Source of the DNA: Candidatus Thorarchaeota archaeon
GTDB taxonomy: Archaea > Asgardarchaeota > Thorarchaeia > Thorarchaeales > Thorarchaeaceae
Direction: 5' to 3'
DNA length: 64,000 nucleotides
Assembly (NCBI GenBank): GCA_004524445.1
Contig: SDNP01000011.1
Span: forward strand, 16,668 to 80,667
Shown here: positions 46,364 to 61,461 of the stretch, one piece after another
Numbering within the stretch: position 1 is the stretch's first letter
How the letters are laid out: every line of letters starts with the position of its first letter
The notes under the pieces: model-generated
Databases searched by the model: none
What the model saw: only the letters and a program-made list of their open reading frames with translations
Told to the model about the DNA's origin: nothing
Made by a program: the position numbers and the translations under genes

Positions 46364-46543
46364 GAACGTGTCTTTCTCCTGCGCGATGCAAATTATACCG
46401 TAGCAACTTTTTGAGATTCGTGTTACTCGGCTTGGTGTCAACTATATATTCTTTTGCAATGCTCAGCTAAAGGGACAAAAACTGGTATTTCTTCTTACTA
46501 ATGGTTGAAATCATTCAAACTGTATCTTGATTGATTTGACAGA

Positions 46544-46771
46544 ATGAGCCTGACAATCGTTGGATTGCCTAACTCAAACTCCATCGGACTCATCATTTGG
46601 TTCAGCAGAGAATTCACAAATTCTGAAACCACTGTATATTATCTTGGCTCCATCCTACTCACCATAATCATTGGTATGCCTACACCCTTCTTACTCTTGA
46701 TTTCATTGGTAGTGATCAAGTTCTATCACCCGCCAAGAACAGAGGGCAGAGGGCTTAATGAAGAAGGCTGA
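46544..46771 (+). CDS. small membrane protein or gene fragment
   Basis: 75-aa ORF with a TM segment; weak support. Confidence 0.35.
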   Translation: MSLTIVGLPNSNSIGLIIWFSREFTNSETTVYYLGSILLTIIIGMPTPFLLLISLVVIKFYHPPRTEGRGLNEEG

Positions 46772-47071: not shown

Positions 47072-47962
47072 GTGCAGACATGTCCAAAATGTGGGAGAGC
47101 AAACGATGTGACGAGGAAGTTCTGCGTTCGTTGCGGGGCCTCTCTGCTAAAGAAAAAAGAACAACCGACACAAGAACCTGCCAAGGTTCCCGAACCTGAA
47201 CCAGTGCCGTTAGAAACTGCTGAATCTGAAGAAGCTAGCGTAAAGCATCCAAGTGGGGTTCCCCCCGATTTAGTGAAACCTGAAGAAGCTGAGCCGGCCG
47301 AGTCATATGTGCTGGACCAGGAGAGCGGTAAGGCAGTCGTCAAGGATATCCTTGAGCGGGTAAGGGCAGCAAAGGCGGGTTCAGAGGCAGAACCTGAAGA
47401 AATCGAGCCCGAAGCAAAGGTAGAGGCCGTTAAGGAACGACCCGTTGAGGAGCCAAGGGCTGAGCAAGAGATTGAGCCCCCCTCACCTAAGCCGGCGCCC
47501 CCGCAACCTAAAGAGGCCAAGATTCCTGATGATGTTCCGACTGCGCCTCCAGCAGCTGTTCCAGAACCTGTCGATGAAGTCGCAAGAGATGAGAAGATCA
47601 GAAGTATTGACTCGGACCTCAAGACATACAACATTGAACTAGGACAACTGAATTCTGAGCTGGATAGTCTGCGGGCTCGCCTTAACGATGAGGTTGACCG
47701 CTATCTCACTGTTGCCGAAACCAAACGAACTCGCTTTGAGGGTCTGAAGAGAGAGCTTGACCTCGCAAAGAAGGAGCATAAAGAAGCAAATAAACAGCAC
47801 AAGAAGGCGGAGAAACGTCGGAAGAAGGAACTGTCAACGGCGGAGAAGCGTATCCGGGACGTAGAAAAACGAATCAAGAAGGCGAAGAAGGCCAGAAAGA
47901 AACGAGTTGAAAAACTGGAGAAGGAGAAACGAAAACGAGAAGAAGAGGCAGCCAAGGACTAG
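47072..47962 (+). CDS. Zn-ribbon protein with Pro/Glu-rich linker and long basic coiled coil
   Basis: CPKCG...FCVRCG; EP-rich region; heptad, K/R/E-rich C-terminus. Confidence 0.8.
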   Translation: MQTCPKCGRANDVTRKFCVRCGASLLKKKEQPTQEPAKVPEPEPVPLETAESEEASVKHPSGVPPDLVKPEEAEPAESYVLDQESGKAVVKDILERVRAAKAGSEAEPEEIEPEAKVEAVKERPVEEPRAEQEIEPPSPKPAPPQPKEAKIPDDVPTAPPAAVPEPVDEVARDEKIRSIDSDLKTYNIELGQLNSELDSLRARLNDEVDRYLTVAETKRTRFEGLKRELDLAKKEHKEANKQHKKAEKRRKKELSTAEKRIRDVEKRIKKAKKARKKRVEKLEKEKRKREEEAAKD

Positions 47963-48293: not shown

Positions 48294-48773
48294 GTGAGGC
48301 AGATTGCGTTGACTAAGAGTGTTGACTTGGATGACCTAGATATTGCAATTCTACGAGAACTGCAAGAAGATTGTAGAACACCGCTGCAGGAAATCGGCAA
48401 GAGAAATGAAGTATCTATGTCCACTATTCATTATCGAGTTAAACGACTTGAGCGGGAAGGCGTAATCGAGGGATACCATGCCAAAATTAACCCTGAGAAA
48501 ATGAATCTTGAGTATATAACAGCAATAAGAGTTTGTGCTGATTACTCAACAGGGTACTATGAGCAGATGGCTGAAGAATTAGCAGAAATTCCTGGAGTAT
48601 GGGCGGTATACTTTGTGCTAGGTGACTATGATTTCCTAGTGTTAACTCGGTCAGGAGATAGAGAAGCTTTTCTGGAGATAATCCATAATATCCTCAAGAT
48701 GAAAAGCGTGAGGAAAACATCAACTCAAGTTGTGGCAAAACTAATCAAAGAGGACTCGCATTTGGAGTTCTAA
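48294..48773 (+). CDS. Lrp/AsnC family transcriptional regulator
   Basis: LDDLDIAILRELQEDCR...STIHYRVKRLEREGVIEGY; GDYDF in the RAM domain. Confidence 0.95.
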   Translation: MRQIALTKSVDLDDLDIAILRELQEDCRTPLQEIGKRNEVSMSTIHYRVKRLEREGVIEGYHAKINPEKMNLEYITAIRVCADYSTGYYEQMAEELAEIPGVWAVYFVLGDYDFLVLTRSGDREAFLEIIHNILKMKSVRKTSTQVVAKLIKEDSHLEF

Positions 48774-48922
48774 TAGCACGGAGATTCTACATGCGGCATA
48801 GGTTACACGCATATTTTGCAGCGACTAAATAGTGTCCGTCCGAAAATGACATTACTCCTTCCATTTATTAGCAAGCAAACACACAAAAAGGCTAGGTCAC
48901 TGTAAGTCAGACGGAAGCTCTA

Positions 48923-50062
48923 TTGATGTCATCGGCTGATAGAAGTCGCGTTCTTAATCTTGCAAAATCGCTGATAATGACAAAATCGGAGAATCCACCT
49001 GGCCATGAGCATGAGGTTGCTTCTATAATTCGCAATCATCTGGAATCTTATGGAATAAGCTGCAAGCAAGTTGGCAATCCCAAAAGGCCCAATCTAATAT
49101 TTTCTACCAGTGAAAATATCAACGGAAAGCTGCTTTTACACGGTCATATGGATACAGTACCTGCAGGAAGTCTCAAAGAATGGAATATGGACCCTTTTGG
49201 TGCTGTTATGGAGGGCAATTCCCTTTATGGGCGAGGATCTTGCGACATGAAGGGGCCACTATCTGCGCTTGCAGAAACAATGATTCTTTATTCTCAGGAA
49301 CGCCACAAAGAGCCGCTTATGATGCTTGCAACTTCAGAAGAGGAAACCACATGCGGTGGTGCAGAAGCAGCTGCTAAGAGCGATCTGCTAGAAAGTGTCA
49401 AGTACGGGATATGTGCTGAACCAACATCCTTGAATGTGCTGATTGGGGAGAAAGGTCTGTTGTGGTTAAGGCTCTCCACAAAAGGAAGAGCTGCTCATGG
49501 TTCGACTCCTGAGTTGGGCAAAAACGCAATCAAACTATGCATGAAAGCGTTGGAAGTCATATTGCAGTATGACTATTCATTTGTAAAGAACAAAATTCTT
49601 GGAGAACCAACTATTAACCTCGGAAAGATAAGTGGTGGCAATAAGATCAATATCGTGCCTGAGGAATGCGAAGCTGAATTGGATATGCGACTAGTAAAGG
49701 GTCAAATCCCTCAAGAAATCGTAAATCAAATGAATAGCGTTTTGAAACAGCATGGAATTGAAGACGGCGTTTGTATTGATACAATGCGATCAAAGCCTAC
49801 AATTCTCACGCCAAAAGATTCAGAAATAGTCACAATGACATTAGATGCAGTGGAGAATATTTTAGGGAGCAGGCCGCCACTGGAGGCGGCTACATACGGC
49901 ACTGACTGTTCTGTGTTACAACCAAAGCTCGGAATTGAGAACGTGATTTGTGGACCAGGATCAATAAAGCTAGCGCACCAGCCAAATGAGCATATCAATA
50001 TTGATGAGCTCTTGAGAGCTGTCGAGATATATCAGTCAATAGCTCGAAATCTATTGGACTAG
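48923..50062 (+). CDS. M20 amidohydrolase (ArgE/DapE-like deacylase)
   Basis: GHMDTVP, GRGSCDMKG, EE, AEPT, AHGS.P..G.NA, NIVP, GPG....AHQPNE. Confidence 0.92.
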   Translation: MMSSADRSRVLNLAKSLIMTKSENPPGHEHEVASIIRNHLESYGISCKQVGNPKRPNLIFSTSENINGKLLLHGHMDTVPAGSLKEWNMDPFGAVMEGNSLYGRGSCDMKGPLSALAETMILYSQERHKEPLMMLATSEEETTCGGAEAAAKSDLLESVKYGICAEPTSLNVLIGEKGLLWLRLSTKGRAAHGSTPELGKNAIKLCMKALEVILQYDYSFVKNKILGEPTINLGKISGGNKINIVPEECEAELDMRLVKGQIPQEIVNQMNSVLKQHGIEDGVCIDTMRSKPTILTPKDSEIVTMTLDAVENILGSRPPLEAATYGTDCSVLQPKLGIENVICGPGSIKLAHQPNEHINIDELLRAVEIYQSIARNLLD

Positions 50063-50148
50063 CGATGTTTGTTGTATCACAGAGTGCAGGAGGTTAGAAA
50101 CTAGCTACCAAATCATAGCAGCTCTCTGCCCGAAAATAAGAAAAATAA

Positions 50149-50185
50149 GGCCCGAATGAAGCTCTCTTGAGCATTCTCTCGGGCC
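50149..50185. terminator. hairpin between convergent genes
   Basis: ggcccga...tcgggcc with inner gctc/gagc arms. Confidence 0.45.
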
Positions 50186-50205
50186 AAGAGGCAAACGGAG
50201 AACGA

Positions 50206-51219
50206 TTATTCGCTTGGCGACTCACCTGATAGTTCATCAAAGCCGTATCCGAAGAACCACCAGCCTATTGTGAAGCCTACTATGAACTCCCAGAGAACAA
50301 AAACTGCCCATAGTATTAGTGCAAAGAACCAATCCACCCCGAAAAGTGGAAGAACCATTGCAGTCACGTAATATGTAGCTATAGCAGCAACTATGGATAT
50401 TGCAGTACTCACTAATCCTTTAGCAGGTTGTGATACTTTTCTGAGAGGCCACATGTTTCCATAGACTACGAAGGCTAGTGTCCAGAATACTAGAATCACT
50501 GTGAAGGTGGGTCCCTGCAAGGTTGTGAAGAATGATATTCCAAACCAGTCAAGAATTATGGCATATAGCCAAGTAAAGAATCCAGCAATTGGCAAAAGCA
50601 CTATTCCTTTGCCGGGTTGTTCTAGTTCTTGAAATGGCCATGTTTCAAAGAGTAGCAATTGCGAAATTGAAATCGGGAACCAAATCCAAGGGATGTCAGT
50701 ACCTGTATCCAGAACCAGAAAACCTGCAACAACTGAGAAAGTCAAAATGGCTAGTCCCATCCACGGTTGCTTGATGGGCTCTTCTCGGTTCATCTTGCCA
50801 GGCCAATAATCTAGCCAGAAAATCCACACGCCAAACATGAAAATTACATTGGTAACAAAAGGTGTGCTTACCACTATACCTGCCATAGTTGAGATGCCAT
50901 TTACGAGCATATAGACGTAAACAGCAAGAGCCATGTAGATTATTCCCAAAATCGTCATTATTACTCCTTGAGCGTATCGATTATCCGTAATGCGATTCGC
51001 TGGCCACAGCTGAAAAACATGTCCAGTTGTGAACCACAGAAAGGCAAAACCGAAAAAGGCCCAAGCTCCAGTGATTGCCAAGTCATACATCAGGATGTTC
51101 TGAAAGACAAACCAATAAACAGCAGTGAGTATCACTGTCACAACGACACCCACGATCCATTTGATTGGCTGTTTCCACATTGTAGGACGTTCGGTCAAAT
51201 TCATCTCCCAACACAACAT
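50206..51219 (-). CDS. ~10-TM Trp-rich putative solute (amine/amino acid) transporter with four WP...QP..G repeats
   Basis: QLWPANR..AQG, DYWPGK..KQPWMG, ETWPFQELEQPGKG, NMWPLRKVSQPAKG. Confidence 0.6.
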   Translation of the reverse strand: MLCWEMNLTERPTMWKQPIKWIVGVVVTVILTAVYWFVFQNILMYDLAITGAWAFFGFAFLWFTTGHVFQLWPANRITDNRYAQGVIMTILGIIYMALAVYVYMLVNGISTMAGIVVSTPFVTNVIFMFGVWIFWLDYWPGKMNREEPIKQPWMGLAILTFSVVAGFLVLDTGTDIPWIWFPISISQLLLFETWPFQELEQPGKGIVLLPIAGFFTWLYAIILDWFGISFFTTLQGPTFTVILVFWTLAFVVYGNMWPLRKVSQPAKGLVSTAISIVAAIATYYVTAMVLPLFGVDWFFALILWAVFVLWEFIVGFTIGWWFFGYGFDELSGESPSE

Positions 51220-51497
51220 TTGTTAACAAACAGAATATATACTTTTCGCACAAATGACCAAAAAATTAGGATTTGATTCGATTTTTGTGTCTTTGATATG
51301 AATATAATTCAATAACCGGCCGTTTAGTGGCACTAAAAGACCAATTAACGGAAGAATATATCATAGAAAGGCCTCCATAATGAATTTTATTTATTTATTG
51401 TGTCAAAATACCTAATAATAATCTAAAATGATGGGTAAAGTTTAAATCTTGTTTAGTTCAAATACAAGCTCACTAACTTATTGGAGTTGGAGAAAAA

Positions 51498-52421
51498 GTG
51501 ACGTTTAAAGTTCTTGCTGTTCTATGTAGTCGAAAAGACGGTTATACGGCATCAGTTCTTTCCCATGCGATTGAAGGTGTCAAAGAGGTAGATGGTGCTG
51601 AAGTCGATGTGGTGCGCATTCATGATTTCAGTGTCAAGCCATGTATCAGCTGTTTTGCCTGTGTCAAGAAACCAGGGAGCGGTTGCATCATCAAAGATGA
51701 CATGGGTGAGAAAGGAAAAGGTGAGTTGTGGGTTAAGACAACAAAGGCAAATGGGATGATTATAGCTGACCCGGTTCATATGTGGTCTTCGAGTGCAGGA
51801 GCACATGCCTTTATTGAGAGACTTTATCCATATCTCTGGACGGGCGAGATGAATGGAATGCCATTCTTCTATTTCTCATGTGCCTCAAATCAAGGTATGC
51901 AACGCTTTTCAGCAAAGGAGATGAACCGAAGAATGATCCCCTGGGGGGTCCGAATGATTGGTCCGTTAGATGTGCATACCGCTTTCCTAAAGGATGCGTT
52001 TAAAGAGGCGCGGAAACTCGGTAAGAAGCTAGCATTGGAGGCCAAGAAAGATGCCGAAGAGGGAAGAAATGCCTTTGAGGATGAATATGAAAAATTCAAG
52101 TATTATCAAAAAACGATTATGCCCGCTTTAGACATATACATGGAAAATCTCTCTCAAGGGACAAACACGTACGAAAAATCGTTGTTCCCTGATGCCCTAG
52201 ATGCATTTGAAAATGAAGAGGCAATACCTATTCTAGAAAAGGCTGCCAAGGAATTCAAAGAGGCACTAAAGCATTACAAGGCTGGTAAAACAGATGATGC
52301 AATAACATCTATCGTGAAGTGCGGTGACTACTGGACAAATGCAACCTGGATTGAGTATTTGAAGGACAACGTGGTTGGTGCCGAGCAACCTAAGGCTTAT
52401 CGGCCACTTCCGGAGGATTAA
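51498..52421 (+). CDS. iron-sulfur flavoprotein (flavodoxin/FMN reductase family) with C-terminal helical extension
   Basis: SRKDGYT, PCISCFAC...CIIKDDM, ADPVH, FIERL. Confidence 0.85.
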   Translation: MTFKVLAVLCSRKDGYTASVLSHAIEGVKEVDGAEVDVVRIHDFSVKPCISCFACVKKPGSGCIIKDDMGEKGKGELWVKTTKANGMIIADPVHMWSSSAGAHAFIERLYPYLWTGEMNGMPFFYFSCASNQGMQRFSAKEMNRRMIPWGVRMIGPLDVHTAFLKDAFKEARKLGKKLALEAKKDAEEGRNAFEDEYEKFKYYQKTIMPALDIYMENLSQGTNTYEKSLFPDALDAFENEEAIPILEKAAKEFKEALKHYKAGKTDDAITSIVKCGDYWTNATWIEYLKDNVVGAEQPKAYRPLPED

Positions 52422-52459
52422 TAGCTTCGAAATCTTTCCAGTTCTCGGAGAGTTATTCT

Positions 52460-53218
52460 ATGAAGATCCTGGATGGTGTCCATCTAATTGGAAGCGGAAA
52501 TACGGGCTTAGGAATCTCAAATGATTATGACTGTCATATATATCTCCTTGATGGCGGAAATGAAATGGCAATCATAGATGCAGGAGGTGGGCGTGAAACT
52601 GGTCGAATTTTAGAGAATGCTAAGAATGATGGCATAGACATCAAGAAGATCACCAGGGTCTTCCTGAGCCATTCCCATTCCGACCACGCAGCAGGCGCCA
52701 AGAATATGCTTGATTTGCTAGATGCGGAGATACTTGCTCCTTCCGGAGAAACTAAGATAATCGAAACCGCTGATGAGAAGGCCCTCGGTCTCGATGTAGC
52801 AAGAGGTGAGGGGCGATTCTATCCTCCAGATTATATATTCCCACCATGCCCCGTTGACGTGAAACTCGAGCATGAAGACCGATTCCAAATCGGAGAATAT
52901 GAAATTCAGGCAATAAGCGTTCCTGGGCACACATTGGATACTATGTGTTTCTACACAGAAGTAGATGATGAGCACTACGGTAAGAAGAGAGTGCTATTTT
53001 CAAGCGACGTTGTCTTCTTTCAGGGCCTAATAAGCCTCCTTAACTGCCAAGGGTCTAGTCTATCAGCGTATCGTGAAGGAATCAAGAACCTTCGAGGACT
53101 TAATATTGATACTCTCCTCCCAGGGCACTTCACATTCTGCATCAATGGTGGACAAGCTCAGATCGACCAGGCCCTAGCAGCATTTAAGGAAATGAGTGTG
53201 CCGCCGTGTGCGTTTTGA
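52460..53218 (+). CDS. MBL-fold hydrolase (glyoxalase II/lactonase-like)
   Basis: IDAG, SHSHSDHAAG, PGHT, FSSD, LPGH. Confidence 0.9.
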   Translation: MKILDGVHLIGSGNTGLGISNDYDCHIYLLDGGNEMAIIDAGGGRETGRILENAKNDGIDIKKITRVFLSHSHSDHAAGAKNMLDLLDAEILAPSGETKIIETADEKALGLDVARGEGRFYPPDYIFPPCPVDVKLEHEDRFQIGEYEIQAISVPGHTLDTMCFYTEVDDEHYGKKRVLFSSDVVFFQGLISLLNCQGSSLSAYREGIKNLRGLNIDTLLPGHFTFCINGGQAQIDQALAAFKEMSVPPCAF

Positions 53219-53315
53219 ATTTCGGACATATGACCTTGCCTCGATAACAACGAAGGAGCTGAATGTGCAATTAGAATAAACTCTCCGTCTATCTTTTCTC
53301 GATGGTGATATTAAA

Positions 53316-54356
53316 GTGGAATACAGACTCGCGCTAATAGGCTTGGGTGTTGTTGGACAGGGTATAGTCGAAATACTCACAAATGAAAGAAACTCACTTC
53401 AAGAATCATATGATATTGATCTGAAAGTTACTGCTATTTCTGACATAAGGAAGGGTTCAGTATATGATCCTGAAGGAATTGATCTAAAGCAAATCTTGGA
53501 CCTAGTAAAAGAGAAAGATTGCATTGATGATTACATTGGTGGAGTCAAAGGGTGGGATAGCCTCAAGACTATAAGGGAATCGAATGCAGATATTGTGGTG
53601 GAAGCAACAGAAACTGATATTGTGACTGGCGAGCCAGGTTTAACACACATGTTAACCTCAATAGAGCATGGAAAACATGTGGTTACCACAAATAAAGGAC
53701 CACTGAGCCTAGCCAGCACAAAACTTCTCGATCGTGCTGCCGAGGTGGGGGTTCACTTGAGATTTGAGGGTACAGTTCTTAGTGGCACTCCGGCATTGGG
53801 CTTAGCTACTCAACATTTAGCAGCCGCACACATAATAGCAGTTCATGGCATTGTTAACGGAACGTGCAACTATATTCTTACGGAAATGGAAAAAGGTCTA
53901 ACCTACGATGCCGCTTTGAAACAGGCTCAGGAACTTGGCTATGCAGAAGCGGATCCGTCAGCAGATGTTGAAGGATTAGACTCTCTTGCCAAGATAATAA
54001 TCCTCGCCAATACACTGTTGGGAGGAAATCTAAACAAGGACCAAGTTGACTGTAAAGGGATATCGGAAATATCAAGAGAGGATGTGGAAGCTGCAAAGGA
54101 GAATGGAAGACGGTGGAAACTAATTGCTACAGCCAAGGTTGTAAATGATAATGCCATTGAGGCACACGTACGGCCAAAGAAACTCCCACTAGATGACCCA
54201 CTTGCCGCAGTCACTGGCGCCACAAACGCTCTCACTTATGAAACAAGATACCTCGGCAACATCACAATTATTGGGCCAGGAGCAGGCGGATTAGAAACTG
54301 GCTATGCTATTCTTCATGACATTCTAGACATTCATAAAAAACTAAGAGAACAATGA
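53316..54356 (+). CDS. hom: homoserine dehydrogenase (no ACT domain)
   Basis: GLGVVG, HVVTTNKGP, FEGTVLSGTP, GIVNGTCNYIL, AQELGYAEADPSADVEG.D, GPGAG..TG. Confidence 0.95.
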   Translation: MEYRLALIGLGVVGQGIVEILTNERNSLQESYDIDLKVTAISDIRKGSVYDPEGIDLKQILDLVKEKDCIDDYIGGVKGWDSLKTIRESNADIVVEATETDIVTGEPGLTHMLTSIEHGKHVVTTNKGPLSLASTKLLDRAAEVGVHLRFEGTVLSGTPALGLATQHLAAAHIIAVHGIVNGTCNYILTEMEKGLTYDAALKQAQELGYAEADPSADVEGLDSLAKIIILANTLLGGNLNKDQVDCKGISEISREDVEAAKENGRRWKLIATAKVVNDNAIEAHVRPKKLPLDDPLAAVTGATNALTYETRYLGNITIIGPGAGGLETGYAILHDILDIHKKLREQ

Positions 54357-54378
54357 ATGAATACGGTGGTGCTACTCT

Positions 54379-56178
54379 TTGGGATATATGGGGAAATATC
54401 TACGGGTCGACTTATCTGATGAGTCTATAACGAAATATTCCCTGGATATAAGTTTCGCAAGGAAGTTCATTGGTGGAAAGGGGCTTGGAGCTAAGTTGCT
54501 TTATGATGGGCTTGATGCGGGAGTCAATCCATTGAGTCCGGATAATATGATTCTATTCATGACTGGACCTCTAACCGGGACTTCGATTCAGACATCAGGT
54601 CGATGGTGCATTGTTACAAAATCACCACAAACCGGAATCTTCAATGACAGTCATATTGGAGGTCATTTTGGGTATCGACTGAAGCGGTCAGGATACGATT
54701 ACATTGAGGTCGATGGAAAGGCATCAAGCCCCAGCTTCCTAGAAATATCTGAAGAACACGTTGATATTCACCCGGCAGCTGATTTATGGGGGCAGGGAAC
54801 CTTTGAAACAGAACGGATACTGAAAAATCGTTACCCGAAATCCGAAGTCATATCAATTGGGCCAGCAGGAGAGAATCTAGTCCTTTATGCTTGCGCAGTC
54901 ACAGGCAAAACCCATATTGCAGGGAGAGGTGGGGTAGGAGCAGTCATGGGATCCAAGAACCTAAAGGCGCTCGTTGTTCATGGGCAGCGTCCAATTGAAA
55001 CATCTGACCCAACAAAGTTTGCTGAGCTCAGCCAGGACCTGCGAAAGAGAGTATTTTCAAATCCAGGTGTCAAATTAAGACATGAACTAGGTACTGTCAT
55101 GTGGGTTCGTAGGGCTAATGACGCAGGAATTCTGCCAACACACAACTTCCAGTCAGGTACCTTCGATGGGGCAGAAGCCATCTCTGGAGAAAGGATGCGT
55201 GATGAACACGTTATCGGTCACACGGCATGTTATGCTTGTGGAATAGCTTGTGGCAAAACAACGAAATTCGAGAGTGGGGACTACGCGCCTCTTGAAGTTG
55301 ACGGGCCTGAGTACGAAACGACTGCTCTCCTAGGATCTAATTGTGGAATCGACAACCTTGCAGCGATTGCGAAACTTAGCCAGATTTGTGACGACCTTGG
55401 TCTCGACACGATATCGACGGGAGGGTCTGTTGCTTTTGCAATTGAAGCTAGCAACAAGGGAGTTCTCCTGCAAGAAGATATAGACAATCTGGAGTTTGGA
55501 AACGCAAAAGCTGTCATCCAGTTGGTGAATCTAATTGCCACAAGAAGAGGGGTTGGTGATATACTTGCGAGGGGCTCGCTTTCTGCAGCCCAGCAATTGA
55601 ATGAAGATAGCGTTGGCTTTGCAATTCAAGTTAAGGGCATGGAGCTGCCAGGAGTAGAACCACGGGCATCATGGGGGATGGCACTCGCTTATGCCACTGC
55701 TGATAGGGGTGGATGCCACCAAAGATGCTGGACGCCTTCAGCGGAACTTTCCGGAGCTCTCCCAAGATTCAGTATGAAGGGAGTTCCGCAGTATGTTAAA
55801 GAAGTTCAGGATGAACGGGCAGTGTGTTATTCGCTTGTACTCTGTGATTTTCTCCCATTTGATGTTCCGGAAATGGTAGATATTCTCAATTCCGCCACAG
55901 GCTTCTCATTCACGGAAGAGAGCTATATTGAAACAGGGGAGAGAATATGGAACCTTATCAGAATGTTTAATGTTCGAGAGGGGATATCTTCATGTGATGA
56001 TGTCCTCCCGGAGAGGTTCACTAGTGAAACGTTACCCAACGGGGACGGAAAAGGACTGAAAGTCCCCTCGAGTGTCTTTGCGACGGCAAGGGGCGAGTAC
56101 TATAGGCTTCGCGGATGGGACCAAACGGGGATTCCTTCTGACAAATTGTTGAAGTCACTCCACCTGAATCTAGATTGA
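54379..56178 (+). CDS. aor: tungsten-dependent aldehyde:ferredoxin oxidoreductase family
   Basis: IGGKGLG, KSPQTG, IGPAGEN, GRGGVGAVMGSKNLKA, CYACGIAC, GPEYET, DDLGLDTIS, RGGCH. Confidence 0.93.
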   Translation: MGYMGKYLRVDLSDESITKYSLDISFARKFIGGKGLGAKLLYDGLDAGVNPLSPDNMILFMTGPLTGTSIQTSGRWCIVTKSPQTGIFNDSHIGGHFGYRLKRSGYDYIEVDGKASSPSFLEISEEHVDIHPAADLWGQGTFETERILKNRYPKSEVISIGPAGENLVLYACAVTGKTHIAGRGGVGAVMGSKNLKALVVHGQRPIETSDPTKFAELSQDLRKRVFSNPGVKLRHELGTVMWVRRANDAGILPTHNFQSGTFDGAEAISGERMRDEHVIGHTACYACGIACGKTTKFESGDYAPLEVDGPEYETTALLGSNCGIDNLAAIAKLSQICDDLGLDTISTGGSVAFAIEASNKGVLLQEDIDNLEFGNAKAVIQLVNLIATRRGVGDILARGSLSAAQQLNEDSVGFAIQVKGMELPGVEPRASWGMALAYATADRGGCHQRCWTPSAELSGALPRFSMKGVPQYVKEVQDERAVCYSLVLCDFLPFDVPEMVDILNSATGFSFTEESYIETGERIWNLIRMFNVREGISSCDDVLPERFTSETLPNGDGKGLKVPSSVFATARGEYYRLRGWDQTGIPSDKLLKSLHLNLD

Positions 56179-56279
56179 TTTGGTAGAATAAGGCTGACAG
56201 TTGGGGGATTGACTAGCTCAAAGCAAACCCCATCAGGCCTGTAATCTAGTTCTGTATTCGATGAACAATGTGGTTTCAT

Positions 56280-57479
56280 TTATCGCTCTGACTGAACGCG
56301 TTCGATCTCCTCAATGATATGCGGGACTACCTTAAACAGGTCACCAACAATGCCGAAGTCAGCAACATTGAAGATTGGTGCATCAGGGTCTTTGTTAATG
56401 GCTACCACGATTGACGCTGTCTGCATGCCCACCAAATGTTGAATTTGCCCCGAAATCCCCAGCGCGAAATAGAGTTTGGGACAGATGGTCCGTCCGGACT
56501 GCCCGACCTGCTGCGTGGGAGGCAGCCACCCGAGGTCCACGATGGGGCGCGAGCCGCCGACGGCAGCATCGAGCAAGTCCGCGAGTTTCCTGGGCAGTTC
56601 GAGATTGGCGGGTTCCTTGATACCGCGACCACTGCAGACAACGACGTCCGCCTCTTCAACAGACTTCATGCCCTCGGTGACCTGACTGACCTTCTCGAGG
56701 ATTTTGGTTCTGACCTGCACGGGGCTGATTTCGATGTCAATCTTCTCAATCTCGCCTTCTCGTGAGTTGTCAGGTTCTATCGGCTTGAAGACATTGGGGC
56801 GTCCGGTTGCCATCTGCGGTCTGGTATAGGGGGAGAGAATCTCAGCCATGATGTTACCGCCAAAGGCAGGACGGGTCTGAACGAGTTGGCGCTCATCATC
56901 GATATCAAGACCAGTACAGTCAGCGGTGAGACCCAGTCCCATTCGTGCAGCAACGCGAGGCGCTAGGTCACGCCCATTGCTGGTAGCGCCATAAAGCACG
57001 ATTGCTGGTTTTCGTGGTGCAATCAGGGTGTTCATGGCGATGGTGTATGCATCAGTGGTATAGTCCTTGAAGATCTCATCATCAACCACAAGGACCTTGT
57101 CGGCGCCGTGATGGATGAGTCTCTCGGCGTGTTTCTCGATGTCATGACCGATGATAACAGCTACAACCTCTTCTTCCAGCTTGTCCGCCAGATCTCTAGC
57201 CTTTCCGAGGAGCTCGGGACCCACACTGCGGATTTTGCCTTCATTGGTCTCAATCCACACCCAGACATTCTTGAATTCAGCGAGATGCTCCTTGTCGATG
57301 ATTTTTCGTTCAATCCTGATGGCATCAACAGGACACACCTCTTCACAGGAGCCACAGAGAACGCAATTCTCCAGAATGAACTTGACCTTATCACCATCTT
57401 CCTCGATGGCGCCGAAGTTACAGACCTTTGGGCACAACATGCAGCCAATGCACGTATCTCTATCATAATGCAGACTCAT
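56280..57479 (-). CDS. etfA: electron transfer flavoprotein alpha subunit with N-terminal 2x[4Fe-4S] ferredoxin domain
   Basis: CIGCMLC...C and CVLCGSCEEVCP; GLTADCT, QTRPAFGGN, QVGQSG, GISGQIQHLVGM. Confidence 0.95.
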   Translation of the reverse strand: MSLHYDRDTCIGCMLCPKVCNFGAIEEDGDKVKFILENCVLCGSCEEVCPVDAIRIERKIIDKEHLAEFKNVWVWIETNEGKIRSVGPELLGKARDLADKLEEEVVAVIIGHDIEKHAERLIHHGADKVLVVDDEIFKDYTTDAYTIAMNTLIAPRKPAIVLYGATSNGRDLAPRVAARMGLGLTADCTGLDIDDERQLVQTRPAFGGNIMAEILSPYTRPQMATGRPNVFKPIEPDNSREGEIEKIDIEISPVQVRTKILEKVSQVTEGMKSVEEADVVVCSGRGIKEPANLELPRKLADLLDAAVGGSRPIVDLGWLPPTQQVGQSGRTICPKLYFALGISGQIQHLVGMQTASIVVAINKDPDAPIFNVADFGIVGDLFKVVPHIIEEIERVQSER

Positions 57480-57481
57480 CT

Positions 57482-58300
57482 CTATATCGCCCCCTTCTTT
57501 GCGAGGAATTCAACCAGTTGTCTTGCTGCTTCCTTCGGGTCTTCAGCCTCGATTTTGATGCCGCCTTTCTTCTTCTCAGGGGGATATACCTTGCGTACTT
57601 GCGTTGGCGATCCGGATAGTCCCAGTTCGTCCTCGTCCACATCAAGGTCATCAGCACAGACTTCCTCGAGAGGTTTCTTCTTCGCCTTCATGATGCCCAT
57701 AATGTTCGGAAGGCGGGGTTCGTTCAATCCCTTGTCAGCAGTGATTAGGAGGGGCATTTTCGCTCGAACAACTTCGTAGCCCTCGTCTGTTCCACGATGG
57801 GCAATCACATGTTTGCCGTTTTCATCTATCTCAAGATGCCGGACATAACAAATCTGGGGAATTCCAAGAAGTTCAGCCAGTTCTGGACCCACTTGGGCGG
57901 TATCTCCATCAATTGCTTGCTTTCCGCAGATTATCATATCGTATTCCATCTTCTTAATCTGCTGCGCCAATGTGAAGGCAGTAGCCCATGTATCAGCGCC
58001 TGCAAACTTCATATCAGTCATATGGACTGCTTTGTCACCGCCCATGGCAAGAGCCTTGTAAAGTGCGTCTTTTGCTTGTGGTGGGCCCATTGTAAGAATG
58101 GTGACTTCACCACCATGTTCTTCCTTCAGTTTGATGGCTTCCTCTACAGCATATTCGTCAAATGGATTCAAAATGCTGGGAACGCCCTCTCGGATTAGTG
58201 TGCCAGTCTCCGGGTCAACCTCTACTTCGGCAACCTCGGGAACTTGCTTCACAGGTACTATTATCTTCATTAGCGATGCACCGCTTTGTATAACGCTCAA
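57482..58300 (-). CDS. etfB: electron transfer flavoprotein beta subunit
   Basis: VKQVP, NPFDEYAVEEA, MGP, GADT.AT, GKQAIDGDTAQVG, GLSGSPT. Confidence 0.96.
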   Translation of the reverse strand: MSVIQSGASLMKIIVPVKQVPEVAEVEVDPETGTLIREGVPSILNPFDEYAVEEAIKLKEEHGGEVTILTMGPPQAKDALYKALAMGGDKAVHMTDMKFAGADTWATAFTLAQQIKKMEYDMIICGKQAIDGDTAQVGPELAELLGIPQICYVRHLEIDENGKHVIAHRGTDEGYEVVRAKMPLLITADKGLNEPRLPNIMGIMKAKKKPLEEVCADDLDVDEDELGLSGSPTQVRKVYPPEKKKGGIKIEAEDPKEAARQLVEFLAKKGAI

Positions 58301-58896: not shown

Positions 58897-61461
58897 CTAG
58901 CTCTTGCATTCCGGAATCTGCAACACGAATTTTGTTCCAGAGGTTGGGTCACCTTCAATTCTATCTTCAACCCGTACCCTCCCACCATATCGCTCAATGA
59001 TTCTCTTTACAAGTGTAAGCCCGATTCCCGACCCGGATCTTCTATCCGGAAGAAGCCTTGCAAAAAGGCTCTCTTTATGCTCATCTGATATTCCCGGGCC
59101 ATAGTCTGTAACTGAAATTTCAATTAGGTCTTGATGTACAATTCTATCTGCTTTCACTTCAATGGTAATATCTTCAGAATCAGAGAATTTCACTGCATTA
59201 TGGAAAAGGTTGTAGAAGACATCTATCAAGAATTCATCAGCCCTAGCACAGTAGTTCTCATCGATTTCAGTAATGAAGGTGACATCCTTTGTTGGGAAGG
59301 CGTTGATTATGGCATCTTTCGCCGTTTTAATGACGCCGGTTAGTTGGGTTTCTGTCAGGTTACGAGCAGCTTCATCCACTACCGAGAATTTTCTTACATT
59401 TGCGATCAGCTCAAGACTTCGCTTCACTTGTTCCAGAGCTGCCTGCAATTTGTTTTTGAGATGAGAGGGGAGGTCAGGATTTAGTAGTAGAAGCTCAAGA
59501 GAGGTCATAATGCCCTGATGCACATTATTGAGGTCGTGCGCCATTAGATCGTTAAAGAACTCTGCACGTGCCCTCGCGGCTTTGACCTCTTCTTCTGCTA
59601 GCTTTCTCTCCGTTTCATCGGTAATTATGATGAAGTGACTTGCTGAGCCATCATCGTTCATCATTACTGTGTATCTGTTTTTAATGAACGCTCGTGACCC
59701 ATCCTTTCTTTGTACCCAAAATTCAAGCTCGGTCAACTCAGATTCGGATAGTCGCATCTTACCATAAGCTCTCTTCAGGCGTTCTCTCTCTTCTGGGCAA
59801 GCAAGCTCAATGACCGTCATTTCCATTAATTCTTCACGAGGATATCCAAATATCTCGCATGCCCGATCATTGATTAAGACCACACGATCATTACGTCTAA
59901 TGATAAGGCCATCACGGACTGTGTCAGATACTATTCGAAAGTGTTCTTCGGCATTCCTAAGCTGTTCTTCAGTTATTTGTCGCTCCAACACTGTCGCCAA
60001 TAAATCTGCGATGGTATCAAAGAAGCTTCGGTCCAAGTCAACAAATTCTCTTCGTCCTCGCGAGGCAATATTAAGGACACCCAATACATCATTATTTGCA
60101 TTAAGAAGAGGCCAGGAGATTAAGGATTCTATTCCCAATTCCTGAATGCGTTCCATCTGATTCTGTGTTTCGTCACTGATATGAACGTCGCCAGCAAGAA
60201 TCGGTTTCTTAGTTCGTGCTGTACGAGCAACTAGCATATTAGCGCCATCAGATGATTCCATATCTATTTCCTGTTTCACTTGACCTTGATCAACTCCTTC
60301 CAGGGCTATCAGCTGTAATTTGCTCTCCTCTGGCACCAGCAATCGTATCACACCGAGGTCGAAGTCAAGCGTTTCAATCAGACCAGATAATACCCGACCA
60401 CAGAGATCTGCTCTATCCTCAGAATGAACAGCCGCATCAGCAACAAGACGATATGCTTCTCGTTCACGGTGTAACATCATCTTGGCGCGATTTCTTTCGG
60501 TGATATCAAGCATTGCAACATATACTCGATCCCATGTGTCCTCATGCCCAGGAGGGATGGTGACAGTCAGTAGCAAATCCCTGAATTTCCCTGAAGCCAG
60601 CTGAAATTCCGATTCGCCGCGGAAGTGAGTAGCACCATTAGCTAAAGCCACAAGCTCTTCTTTGAATGCATCAGTTGTACCCTCTGAGATGATAGAATCA
60701 ACCCCTTTGATAAGTTCCTCCTGTGACTCTACGTCATGCAGGTCAAGTGTTGCCTGGTTAACATTCAGAAGCTCAACAAGGTGAATACATTTTCTTAGCT
60801 CATCTGGATGTTCATCAAAGTACTTCCTGAAATCACTTATTCCCGAACCACGGAGGGTATCGAAGTATGCCTTAACTCGGGAGAAGTCCTCCTCCCAAAG
60901 CGAAATCGGAGAGTCTTCAAACAAGCTTCTAAATCGGCTCTCACTTTCGCGCAGTAAATCTTCTGCCCTATCAAGATTGGATTGGATTGAATTCATGCTC
61001 TCTTGAGCACGTTTTTCTGCTTCATGCACTCGTTTTTCGACTACTTCAATGGCCGATTGTTCTGTGAGATCACGGATGATAATTGAAACCATGCTCTGCT
61101 CTCCAAACTTTGTGACATCCGCGGATACTGATATCTTTCGAACTCTGCCACTAGAATCAACGAATTCATATTCCTCGTCATCATGTGTTGAATCACTATC
61201 CAGAAGCAAGAAGTATCTTTCAAGAGCTGCAGGGGCAGCATTACCGAGGAGAGAATTGGAGATGTCCGTGAATCTCTTTCCTAGTAGCTCTTGTTTTTCA
61301 GCCTCAAACAAATCAGCGAGGGCTTGATTTGCATATACAATTGTATTATCTTTCACGACTAAGATACCGTTACTTGATTTATCCATAAGCAGTTTTATTG
61401 AATTGCCATCAAGCCCTGGTATCTTGTTGCTCGCCCCGTAATCTGTCAGTTGGTTCACCAC
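58897..61461 (-). CDS. soluble PAS-PAS-GAF-PAS histidine kinase
   Basis: PAS ends RDLTE, DITER, DETERK; GAF (WPL...VLGVLNI); H-box LMAHDLNN, N-box NLFHNAVKF, DYGPGI, GSGIGL. Confidence 0.93.
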   Translation of the reverse strand: MVNQLTDYGASNKIPGLDGNSIKLLMDKSSNGILVVKDNTIVYANQALADLFEAEKQELLGKRFTDISNSLLGNAAPAALERYFLLLDSDSTHDDEEYEFVDSSGRVRKISVSADVTKFGEQSMVSIIIRDLTEQSAIEVVEKRVHEAEKRAQESMNSIQSNLDRAEDLLRESESRFRSLFEDSPISLWEEDFSRVKAYFDTLRGSGISDFRKYFDEHPDELRKCIHLVELLNVNQATLDLHDVESQEELIKGVDSIISEGTTDAFKEELVALANGATHFRGESEFQLASGKFRDLLLTVTIPPGHEDTWDRVYVAMLDITERNRAKMMLHREREAYRLVADAAVHSEDRADLCGRVLSGLIETLDFDLGVIRLLVPEESKLQLIALEGVDQGQVKQEIDMESSDGANMLVARTARTKKPILAGDVHISDETQNQMERIQELGIESLISWPLLNANNDVLGVLNIASRGRREFVDLDRSFFDTIADLLATVLERQITEEQLRNAEEHFRIVSDTVRDGLIIRRNDRVVLINDRACEIFGYPREELMEMTVIELACPEERERLKRAYGKMRLSESELTELEFWVQRKDGSRAFIKNRYTVMMNDDGSASHFIIITDETERKLAEEEVKAARARAEFFNDLMAHDLNNVHQGIMTSLELLLLNPDLPSHLKNKLQAALEQVKRSLELIANVRKFSVVDEAARNLTETQLTGVIKTAKDAIINAFPTKDVTFITEIDENYCARADEFLIDVFYNLFHNAVKFSDSEDITIEVKADRIVHQDLIEISVTDYGPGISDEHKESLFARLLPDRRSGSGIGLTLVKRIIERYGGRVRVEDRIEGDPTSGTKFVLQIPECKS

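Follow-up and report, generated by a model that had tools for sequence, protein, structure and literature searches.

A conserved homoserine dehydrogenase and aldehyde ferredoxin oxidoreductase gene pair on a Thorarchaeota genomic island may oxidize homoserine to aspartate

The locus described here raises the question of why a homoserine dehydrogenase gene (hom), commonly read as biosynthetic, persists in an archaeal genome without the rest of its pathway, and why it stands directly ahead of a gene for a tungsten-type aldehyde ferredoxin oxidoreductase (AOR). The stretch analysed, hereafter the window, comprises 64,000 nt of Candidatus Thorarchaeota archaeon (GenBank assembly GCA_004524445.1, contig SDNP01000011.1, positions 16,668 to 80,667) and corresponds to contig C28 of G000 in our genome set, a 2.79-Mb assembly that is 90% complete. 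An earlier note on this DNA had named nine genes, encoding an Lrp regulator, an M20 deacylase, a Trp-rich transporter, an iron-sulfur flavoprotein, a metallo-beta-lactamase-fold (MBL) hydrolase, Hom, AOR, EtfA and EtfB, and had joined them into one system for the consumption of homoserine lactones; the open reading frame listing and our profile searches agreed with it on the position and family of all nine. We found that hom followed by AOR is the only widely conserved link of that system. We also favour, with slightly better than even confidence, the reading that the pair oxidizes homoserine via aspartate 4-semialdehyde (ASA) to aspartate and so generates NADH and reduced ferredoxin.

The hom-AOR pair and its conservation

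The hom gene (53316-54356, plus strand) scores 424.7 bits against NF004912 (PRK06270; cut-off 373) and 199.8 bits against PF00742, and its product carries the dinucleotide fold motif GLGVVG at residues 9-14. Residues K226, D217, D222 and E211, which we take to form the catalytic block, are near-invariant over 47 hom sequences from both of the groups described below, and the protein is predicted, from a score over the curated cut-off, to be an active homoserine dehydrogenase. PRK06270 membership was discarded as a marker of catabolic enzymes, since control hom sequences linked to asd, the aspartate-semialdehyde dehydrogenase gene, also exceed the cut-off. The AOR gene (54379-56178, plus strand) matches PF02730 and PF01314 over their full length (252 and 423 bits), its [4Fe-4S] CxxCxxxC motif reads CYACGIAC at residue 284, and it scores 438-458 bits to solved AORs, the closest chains being 9mqx and 1aor. 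The same-strand gaps are 38 nt between the flavoprotein and MBL genes, 97 nt between MBL and hom and 22 nt between hom and AOR, an arrangement that fits a four-gene operon.

To follow the pair across genomes, we used 151 Asgard genomes, including that of the window, and a Thermoplasmatota class sample of 121 genomes. Fifteen other Asgard genomes, belonging to the families labelled f5, f22 and f15 here, have AORs that share 51% identity or more with that of the window. In 14 of these 15, hom lies directly upstream on the same strand, at a spacing that ranges from an overlap of a few bases to ~35 nt, and the fifteenth contig (in G083) stops within the AOR. Further Asgard pairs, with the AOR shortened by the contig end, occur in G095 (family f25) and G130. 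Among the Thermoplasmatota, 11 of 12 AOR orthologues adjoin hom, in one case with a contig break between the two genes, which brings the adjacency to ~30 Asgard (Hodarchaeota-type) and Thermoplasmatota genomes in total. The hom-linked AORs form one clade (FastTree support 0.886) that excludes the nine other AOR paralogues of the host genome, which has ten in all, as well as hom-less AORs from Bathyarchaeia and Desulfobacterales. No paper describing hom together with AOR as a pair was found in the literature.

The genes around the pair are far less constant. In a comparison with 18 other hom-AOR loci, which span 283 kb, no relatives of the M20, Lrp, flavoprotein, Etf or membrane proteins of the window were detected, and the only MBL-fold genes were distant ones (23-29% identity), which adjoin or lie near hom-AOR in G051 and in family f5. 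Most of the other loci hold a different conserved cluster, made up of a protein that we call c2, a class I/II aminotransferase resembling aspartate aminotransferase (AspAT-like), hom and AOR. An AspAT-like aminotransferase is absent from the island on which the window's pair lies, and the best match elsewhere in the genome is 38% identical. In three f22 loci of Hodarchaeota type (L013:6479-7672, L037 and L040), a PatB-type C-S lyase gene (TIGR04350, 475 bits) directly follows AOR, and a cysteinyl-tRNA synthetase gene adjoins.

Pathway context and the direction of the reaction

The earlier note had seen no aspartokinase, asd or thrB/thrC in the window. This observation extends to the whole 90%-complete genome for asd (PF02774) and aspartokinase, neither of which was found there (controls positive in 14/14 reference genomes), and for ThrB, and the ThrC-like genes are confined to contigs other than that of the window. 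A ThrB2-type kinase over the cut-off, dehydroquinate (DHQ) synthase II of the 6-deoxy-5-ketofructose 1-phosphate (DKFP) route, and HcyBio were likewise not found in this genome. The search for a second, biosynthetic hom proposed in the earlier note returned 53316-54356 as the sole copy.

Three candidate signs of a biosynthetic demand were examined and set aside. Two tandem DapA-like genes (C62:38382-41269, plus strand; 469 and 495 aa, each extended by ~190 aa at the C terminus) were ruled out as an ASA sink; both are fusions reading YNIPQxT, and thus without the ASA-binding Arg of a true dihydrodipicolinate synthase (DHDPS). ThrC was rejected as a marker of biosynthetic use because almost every Asgard genome, with or without hom, has ThrC-like genes of ~200 bits, and because the best copy here reads PTGSFLDRG, with Leu in place of the lysine that binds pyridoxal phosphate (PLP). 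This 495-aa protein (C53:11466-12953, plus strand, locus L050), whose gene adjoins that of c2 across the host family, is probably a non-enzyme. A demand for ASA from the DKFP route was also dismissed, DHQ synthase II not being found in this genome, in f5 (0/13) or in f15, and in only 2/7 genomes of f22.

The distribution of asd is close to the mirror image of that of the pair. PF02774 matches were obtained in 0/13 genomes of f5, 0/4 of f15 and 1/7 of f22, the lone f22 match being weak and partial (77 bits), and in every other Asgard family with hom a strong asd is present (25/25 in f9, for instance). None of the 11 pair-bearing Thermoplasmatota genomes has PF02774, and asd is present at 100 bits or more in 12/20 of the other hom-bearing genomes of that phylum. 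This near-perfect complementarity of hom-AOR with asd and aspartokinase among hom-bearing genomes, the absence of any second hom from these genomes, and the AspAT-like aminotransferase within the conserved cluster all count in favour of a kinase-free biosynthesis, in which AOR and reduced ferredoxin would reduce the beta-carboxylate of aspartate to ASA and Hom would pull it on to homoserine. Aspartokinase and Asd would then be replaced without the ATP cost, as AOR and alcohol dehydrogenase make alcohols from acids, and AORs can indeed reduce acids. However, the host genome is without ThrB, ThrB2, DHQ synthase II, HcyBio or a true DHDPS to use the products, and this, together with the observations on AOR and hom that follow, leads us to regard kinase-free biosynthesis as a serious but unlikely rival.

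In six Thermoplasmatota genomes that have hom and are without a strong asd, the AOR slot after hom is occupied by an NAD(P) aldehyde dehydrogenase (ALDH) of 471-473 aa in an otherwise identical cluster (c2-hom-ALDH-aminotransferase). These ALDHs match PF00171 at 501-537 bits and their closest curated family is the methanogen lactaldehyde dehydrogenase, which indicates that they are neither phosphorylating nor CoA-acylating. Non-acylating NAD(P) ALDHs run towards the acid only. Such an enzyme would be unable to reduce the free acid, and its presence in the sister clusters therefore argues against a reductive role for the slot that it shares with AOR.

A maximum likelihood tree of 49 hom sequences gathered the hom of all asd-less genomes, comprising the AOR-linked and ALDH-linked genes and four more, into a single clade that spans both phyla (support 95/93), with every asd-linked hom outside it. 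An AOR-linked Thermoplasmatota hom (L015) nests among the ALDH-linked sequences, which suggests that the exchange between AOR and ALDH is recent. At the dinucleotide site, members of this asd-independent clade have Gln15 and Asp43 in place of the Arg or Lys found in most asd-linked sequences; the two groups differ at ~20 positions, and the catalytic Lys/Asp/Glu block is common to both. NAD-preferring enzymes classically carry an acidic residue at the end of beta-2, and from these residues the clade is predicted to have an NAD-type cofactor site rather than an NADPH-type one, which counts against kinase-free biosynthesis. Three Asgard members of the clade have no adjoining AOR or ALDH gene (L034 in G105:C50, L033 in G111:C248 and L030 in G115:C61); in G105 the aminotransferase gene is still found upstream of hom.

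The ~20 differences between the two hom groups, and the protein that heads the clusters elsewhere, also bear on whether homoserine is the substrate at all. Protein c2 (427 aa; C53:9347-10624, minus strand, in the host genome, locus L050; also L013:970-2253) has a mean column identity of 77% across Asgard and Thermoplasmatota and heads hom-AOR and hom-ALDH clusters; it is also present in 25/26 host-family genomes without hom, where it is divergent from a ThrC-like gene. Searches of c2 against Pfam, NCBIfam and PDB sequences returned no match, and its Atlas features were uninformative. Its AF2 model is a TIM barrel (pTM 0.81) with flat and generic structural matches (Foldseek TM 0.35-0.5; VIA Z 12.7 for glutamate mutase E and 11-12 for many other barrels). 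The idea that c2 is the missing homoserine kinase was rejected on its presence in the 25/26 hom-less genomes, its lack of a family match and its generic barrel model. A conserved, family-less barrel of this kind, found also where hom is missing, would be compatible with a pathway in which c2 and the aminotransferase deliver another 4-hydroxy amino acid or an omega-hydroxy acid to Hom and AOR or ALDH. The hom of the window nevertheless exceeds the curated homoserine dehydrogenase equivalog cut-off, as the asd-linked controls do, and retains the shared catalytic residues, and activity on homoserine and ASA is documented for the comparable bacterial pair of homoserine dehydrogenase and ALDH (PMC9533460). 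We consider a different substrate quite unlikely.

Together, the AOR/ALDH exchange, the separate hom clade, the predicted NAD-type site, the missing sinks and the biochemical precedent favour the oxidative direction, and they give support to that part of the earlier proposal in which Hom works oxidatively and AOR completes the conversion to aspartate. Hom would convert L-homoserine and NAD+ to L-aspartate 4-semialdehyde, and AOR would oxidize the latter to L-aspartate with ferredoxin as the acceptor, for a net yield of NADH and two reduced ferredoxins available to a fermenting anaerobe. The flux direction, the substrates and the use of ferredoxin are what we infer; the identities of the genes, the conservation and distribution of the pair, the AOR/ALDH exchange, the distinct hom clade and the borders of the island are directly demonstrated.

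Several points weigh against oxidation of homoserine by the pair. Complementarity with asd and aspartokinase, which is strict in that PF02774 occurs in 0/11 Thermoplasmatota and 0-1/15 Asgard genomes bearing the pair, fits, taken alone, a biosynthetic replacement as well as a purely catabolic hom. The Thermoplasmata genome G002 has both aspartokinase and asd, yet its sole hom is AOR-linked, and a second hom was searched for in this genome and not found. Two Hodarchaeota-type genomes with the pair, G139 and G142, carry the ASA-consuming DHQ synthase II, so that ASA is needed there, which speaks for kinase-free biosynthesis; in the host genome, the ThrC-like copy on contig C41 retains the PLP lysine. 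The predicted NAD preference derives from the general rule about an Asp at the end of beta-2, and the locus holds no identified homoserine source or supply enzyme. AORs are reversible, and the AOR-type clusters could thus in principle run reductively; we regard it as rather unlikely that they do run in reverse, with reduced ferredoxin driving aspartate to ASA and Hom carrying ASA on to homoserine.

The island and the genes upstream of the pair

The pair of the window lies in a horizontally acquired island of 9.6 kb. The island edges are marked by an imperfect direct repeat of 100 nt, with the left copy at 46479-46578 and the right copy, which overlaps the 3' end of AOR, at 56123-56222; the two copies are 78% identical and 9644 nt apart. 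On both sides of the island, the window aligns with the same-genus genome G146 at 81-82% nucleotide identity. On the left, where ABC transporter genes lie, the synteny extends to ~46460; on the right, it resumes at 56274 and takes in EtfA, EtfB and a histidine kinase. The repeat copies fall exactly at these limits, and the intervening sequence of G146 is unrelated. The closest relatives of both hom and AOR are of Hodarchaeota type. Within the host family, any hom is found in only 2/27 genomes, and the hom-AOR pair is missing from 25/27, including the same genus. The accessory status of the pair is a further argument for the oxidative reading and against kinase-free biosynthesis. Base composition was discarded as an island marker, since the G+C content is indistinguishable inside the island (0.441) and in the remainder of the window (0.449). 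An integrase gene was not seen within the block. A Zn-ribbon protein gene (47072-47962, plus strand; PF13240, Zn_Ribbon_1) lies inside the island and outside the gene block described below, and has no counterpart in the metagenome contigs L065-L068.

The Etf genes stand beyond the right border. EtfA, with an N-terminal 2x[4Fe-4S] ferredoxin domain (56280-57479, minus strand), is convergent with AOR and is followed by EtfB (57482-58300, minus strand), and both are found at 71-82% nucleotide and 74-92% amino acid identity in Thorarchaeota genomes without hom-AOR. Since EtfAB belongs to this conserved family flank, its convergence on AOR is positional, and the functional link to Etf that the earlier note had drawn, with a caveat to that effect, is not upheld. 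Across Thorarchaeota metagenome-assembled genomes, the ferredoxin-domain EtfA and EtfB are conserved together with a GAF-PAS histidine kinase (58897-61461).

Upstream of the pair, and within the island, five more genes complete a block of seven. The first encodes an Lrp/AsnC-type regulator (48294-48773, plus strand; 72% amino acid identity to its counterpart at the head of the block in metagenome contig L067), and the second an ArgE/DapE-family M20 deacylase (48923-50062, plus strand; TIGR01910 229.8 bits, cut-off 217.6; 67% identity in L067). A candidate transporter follows on the minus strand (50206-51219; 82% identity in L067), a polytopic membrane protein with ~10 hydrophobic segments and 6.8% Trp that returned no Pfam or NCBIfam match and, in the Atlas, unnamed clusters only. 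The fourth gene (51498-52421, plus strand) encodes an Isf-like iron-sulfur flavoprotein (PF03358, 46 bits). The hallmark of Isf is an FMN_red fold with a compact CX2CX2CX4-7C motif, and the protein of the window has both, its CX2CX2CX7C motif reading CISCFACVKKPGSGC at residue 49. The fifth is the MBL-fold metallo-hydrolase gene (52460-53218, plus strand), with HSHSDH at residue 71.

The block Lrp-M20-membrane protein-Isf-MBL-hom-AOR recurs in the same order, at 67-84% amino acid identity, in metagenome contigs. It does so between unrelated flanks, and thus behaves as a cohesive unit in two lineages or more. The conservation of neighbourhood that the earlier note had proposed to test was thus borne out for the seven-gene block in those contigs, but it did not extend to the 18 other hom-AOR loci, from which M20 and Lrp are absent. 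Because the block travels as a unit, the Lrp, M20, membrane, Isf and MBL proteins could constitute a lineage-specific front end that delivers homoserine, with possible roles in electron handling and in the uptake and unmasking of a homoserine derivative.

The earlier note had gone further and read the block as a salvage system for quorum-sensing signals or homoserine lactone, in which import and lactone opening by the MBL hydrolase would be followed by M20 deacylation and by Hom and AOR, with the acyl chain passed to Etf. The cohesion of the seven genes between differing flanks, the intact HxHxDH of the MBL protein, the distant MBL-fold genes next to or near hom-AOR in G051 and in family f5 and the support for the hom-AOR back end are all in keeping with such a system. 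However, HxHxDH is common to the whole MBL superfamily, and HSHSDH is thus non-discriminating for a lactonase. Against the AidB lactonase model NF047979, the MBL protein scores 44 bits (cut-off 360) in an alignment limited to residues 23-171, and it falls far under the cut-offs of all the lactonase, glyoxalase II and B3 beta-lactamase models searched. No orthologue of it was found in the 150 other Asgard genomes, and its relatives at 40-47% identity adjoin FMN_red or old yellow enzyme (OYE)-type flavoproteins, never hom. Moreover, the Isf-MBL pair is also found without hom-AOR, the M20, Lrp and membrane proteins are missing from the 18 other loci, EtfAB is a conserved flank in relatives without the island, and beta-oxidation genes were not seen among those of the island. 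The specific substrate proposed for the MBL hydrolase, a lactone or acyl-homoserine lactone (AHL), thus found no backing, and we hold the full salvage model to be very unlikely. The MBL protein may release homoserine from some derivative, with lactones and AHLs not specifically indicated.

In the metagenome contigs L069-L071, the Isf-MBL pair occurs without hom-AOR, next to genes for a major facilitator superfamily (MFS) transporter, a short-chain dehydrogenase/reductase (SDR) and cytochrome bd subunit II, the MBL protein being 79% identical to that of the window. This suggests that the Isf-MBL pair has a separate redox or detoxification role.

Implications and comparison with known systems

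If homoserine is oxidized by the pair as proposed, Asgard and Thermoplasmatota archaea would own a tungsten enzyme dedicated to an amino-acid semialdehyde, and would draw low-potential electrons from homoserine, a substrate so far not considered for these sediment archaea. One AOR clade among many unassigned paralogues would acquire a specific physiological role, and the persistence of a "biosynthetic" hom in genomes without the rest of the pathway would be explained, a point of consequence for metabolic reconstructions in which the presence of hom is counted towards threonine or methionine prototrophy. The exchange between AOR and ALDH is a clean natural experiment in how anaerobes and their less strict relatives solve the same step, and the island shows a module that moves between Asgard lineages.

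With the canonical aspartate pathway (aspartokinase, Asd, Hom, ThrB and ThrC), the locus shares a bona fide PRK06270-type homoserine dehydrogenase; unlike that pathway, it belongs to a genome in which aspartokinase, Asd and ThrB were not found, and its hom falls outside the asd-linked clade. The AOR resembles the Pyrococcus furiosus AOR sensu stricto (PDB 1AOR; also 9MQX and 9G7J) in its full-length AFOR_N and AFOR_C domains and its CxxCxxxC motif, but it belongs to a separate, hom-joined clade and would act on a dedicated amino-acid semialdehyde rather than in broad aldehyde detoxification. The AHL lactonases AiiA and AidB, considered here together with AHL acylases, share the MBL fold and HxHxDH with the MBL protein; in contrast to AiiA-type enzymes, the window protein reads DVVF in place of DxxY and scores far below the family cut-offs, and its neighbourhood is without a conserved hom, its relatives being paired with flavin reductases. 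In ectoine degradation, DoeC is an ALDH-type, non-phosphorylating ASA dehydrogenase that converts ASA to aspartate in catabolism; there, ASA arises from diaminobutyrate by transamination, and hom and AOR are not involved.

The closest likeness is to the bacterial catabolism of homoserine by a homoserine dehydrogenase (HSD) and an ALDH. Purified NAD-specific HSD and ALDH of Pseudomonas canavaninivorans turn homoserine via ASA into aspartate, a route used in the canavanine pathway of this organism and of Rhizobiales (PMC9533460), and an oxidation-only NAD-specific HSD is known from Arthrobacter nicotinovorans (AnHSD; bioRxiv 10.1101/2021.02.09.430557). The marker of that bacterial NAD-specific class, an Asn in the glycine motif (bioRxiv 10.1101/2021.02.09.430557), differs from the Q15/D43 signature of the archaeal clade. 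Shared features are a non-biosynthetic hom joined to an aldehyde-oxidizing enzyme and the proposed sequence from homoserine through ASA to aspartate; the archaeal cofactor site is predicted to be of the NAD type, and the sister archaeal clusters use an ALDH, as the bacteria do. In contrast to the bacterial route, the archaeal locus has no gamma-lyase or aspartate ammonia-lyase, the other archaeal clusters having an AspAT-like aminotransferase and the TIM-barrel c2, and the aldehyde step would fall to a tungsten-type AOR with ferredoxin, in anaerobic archaea without asd or aspartokinase. By this analogy, hom-AOR would play in anaerobes the part that the NAD-specific HSD and ALDH pair plays in bacteria.

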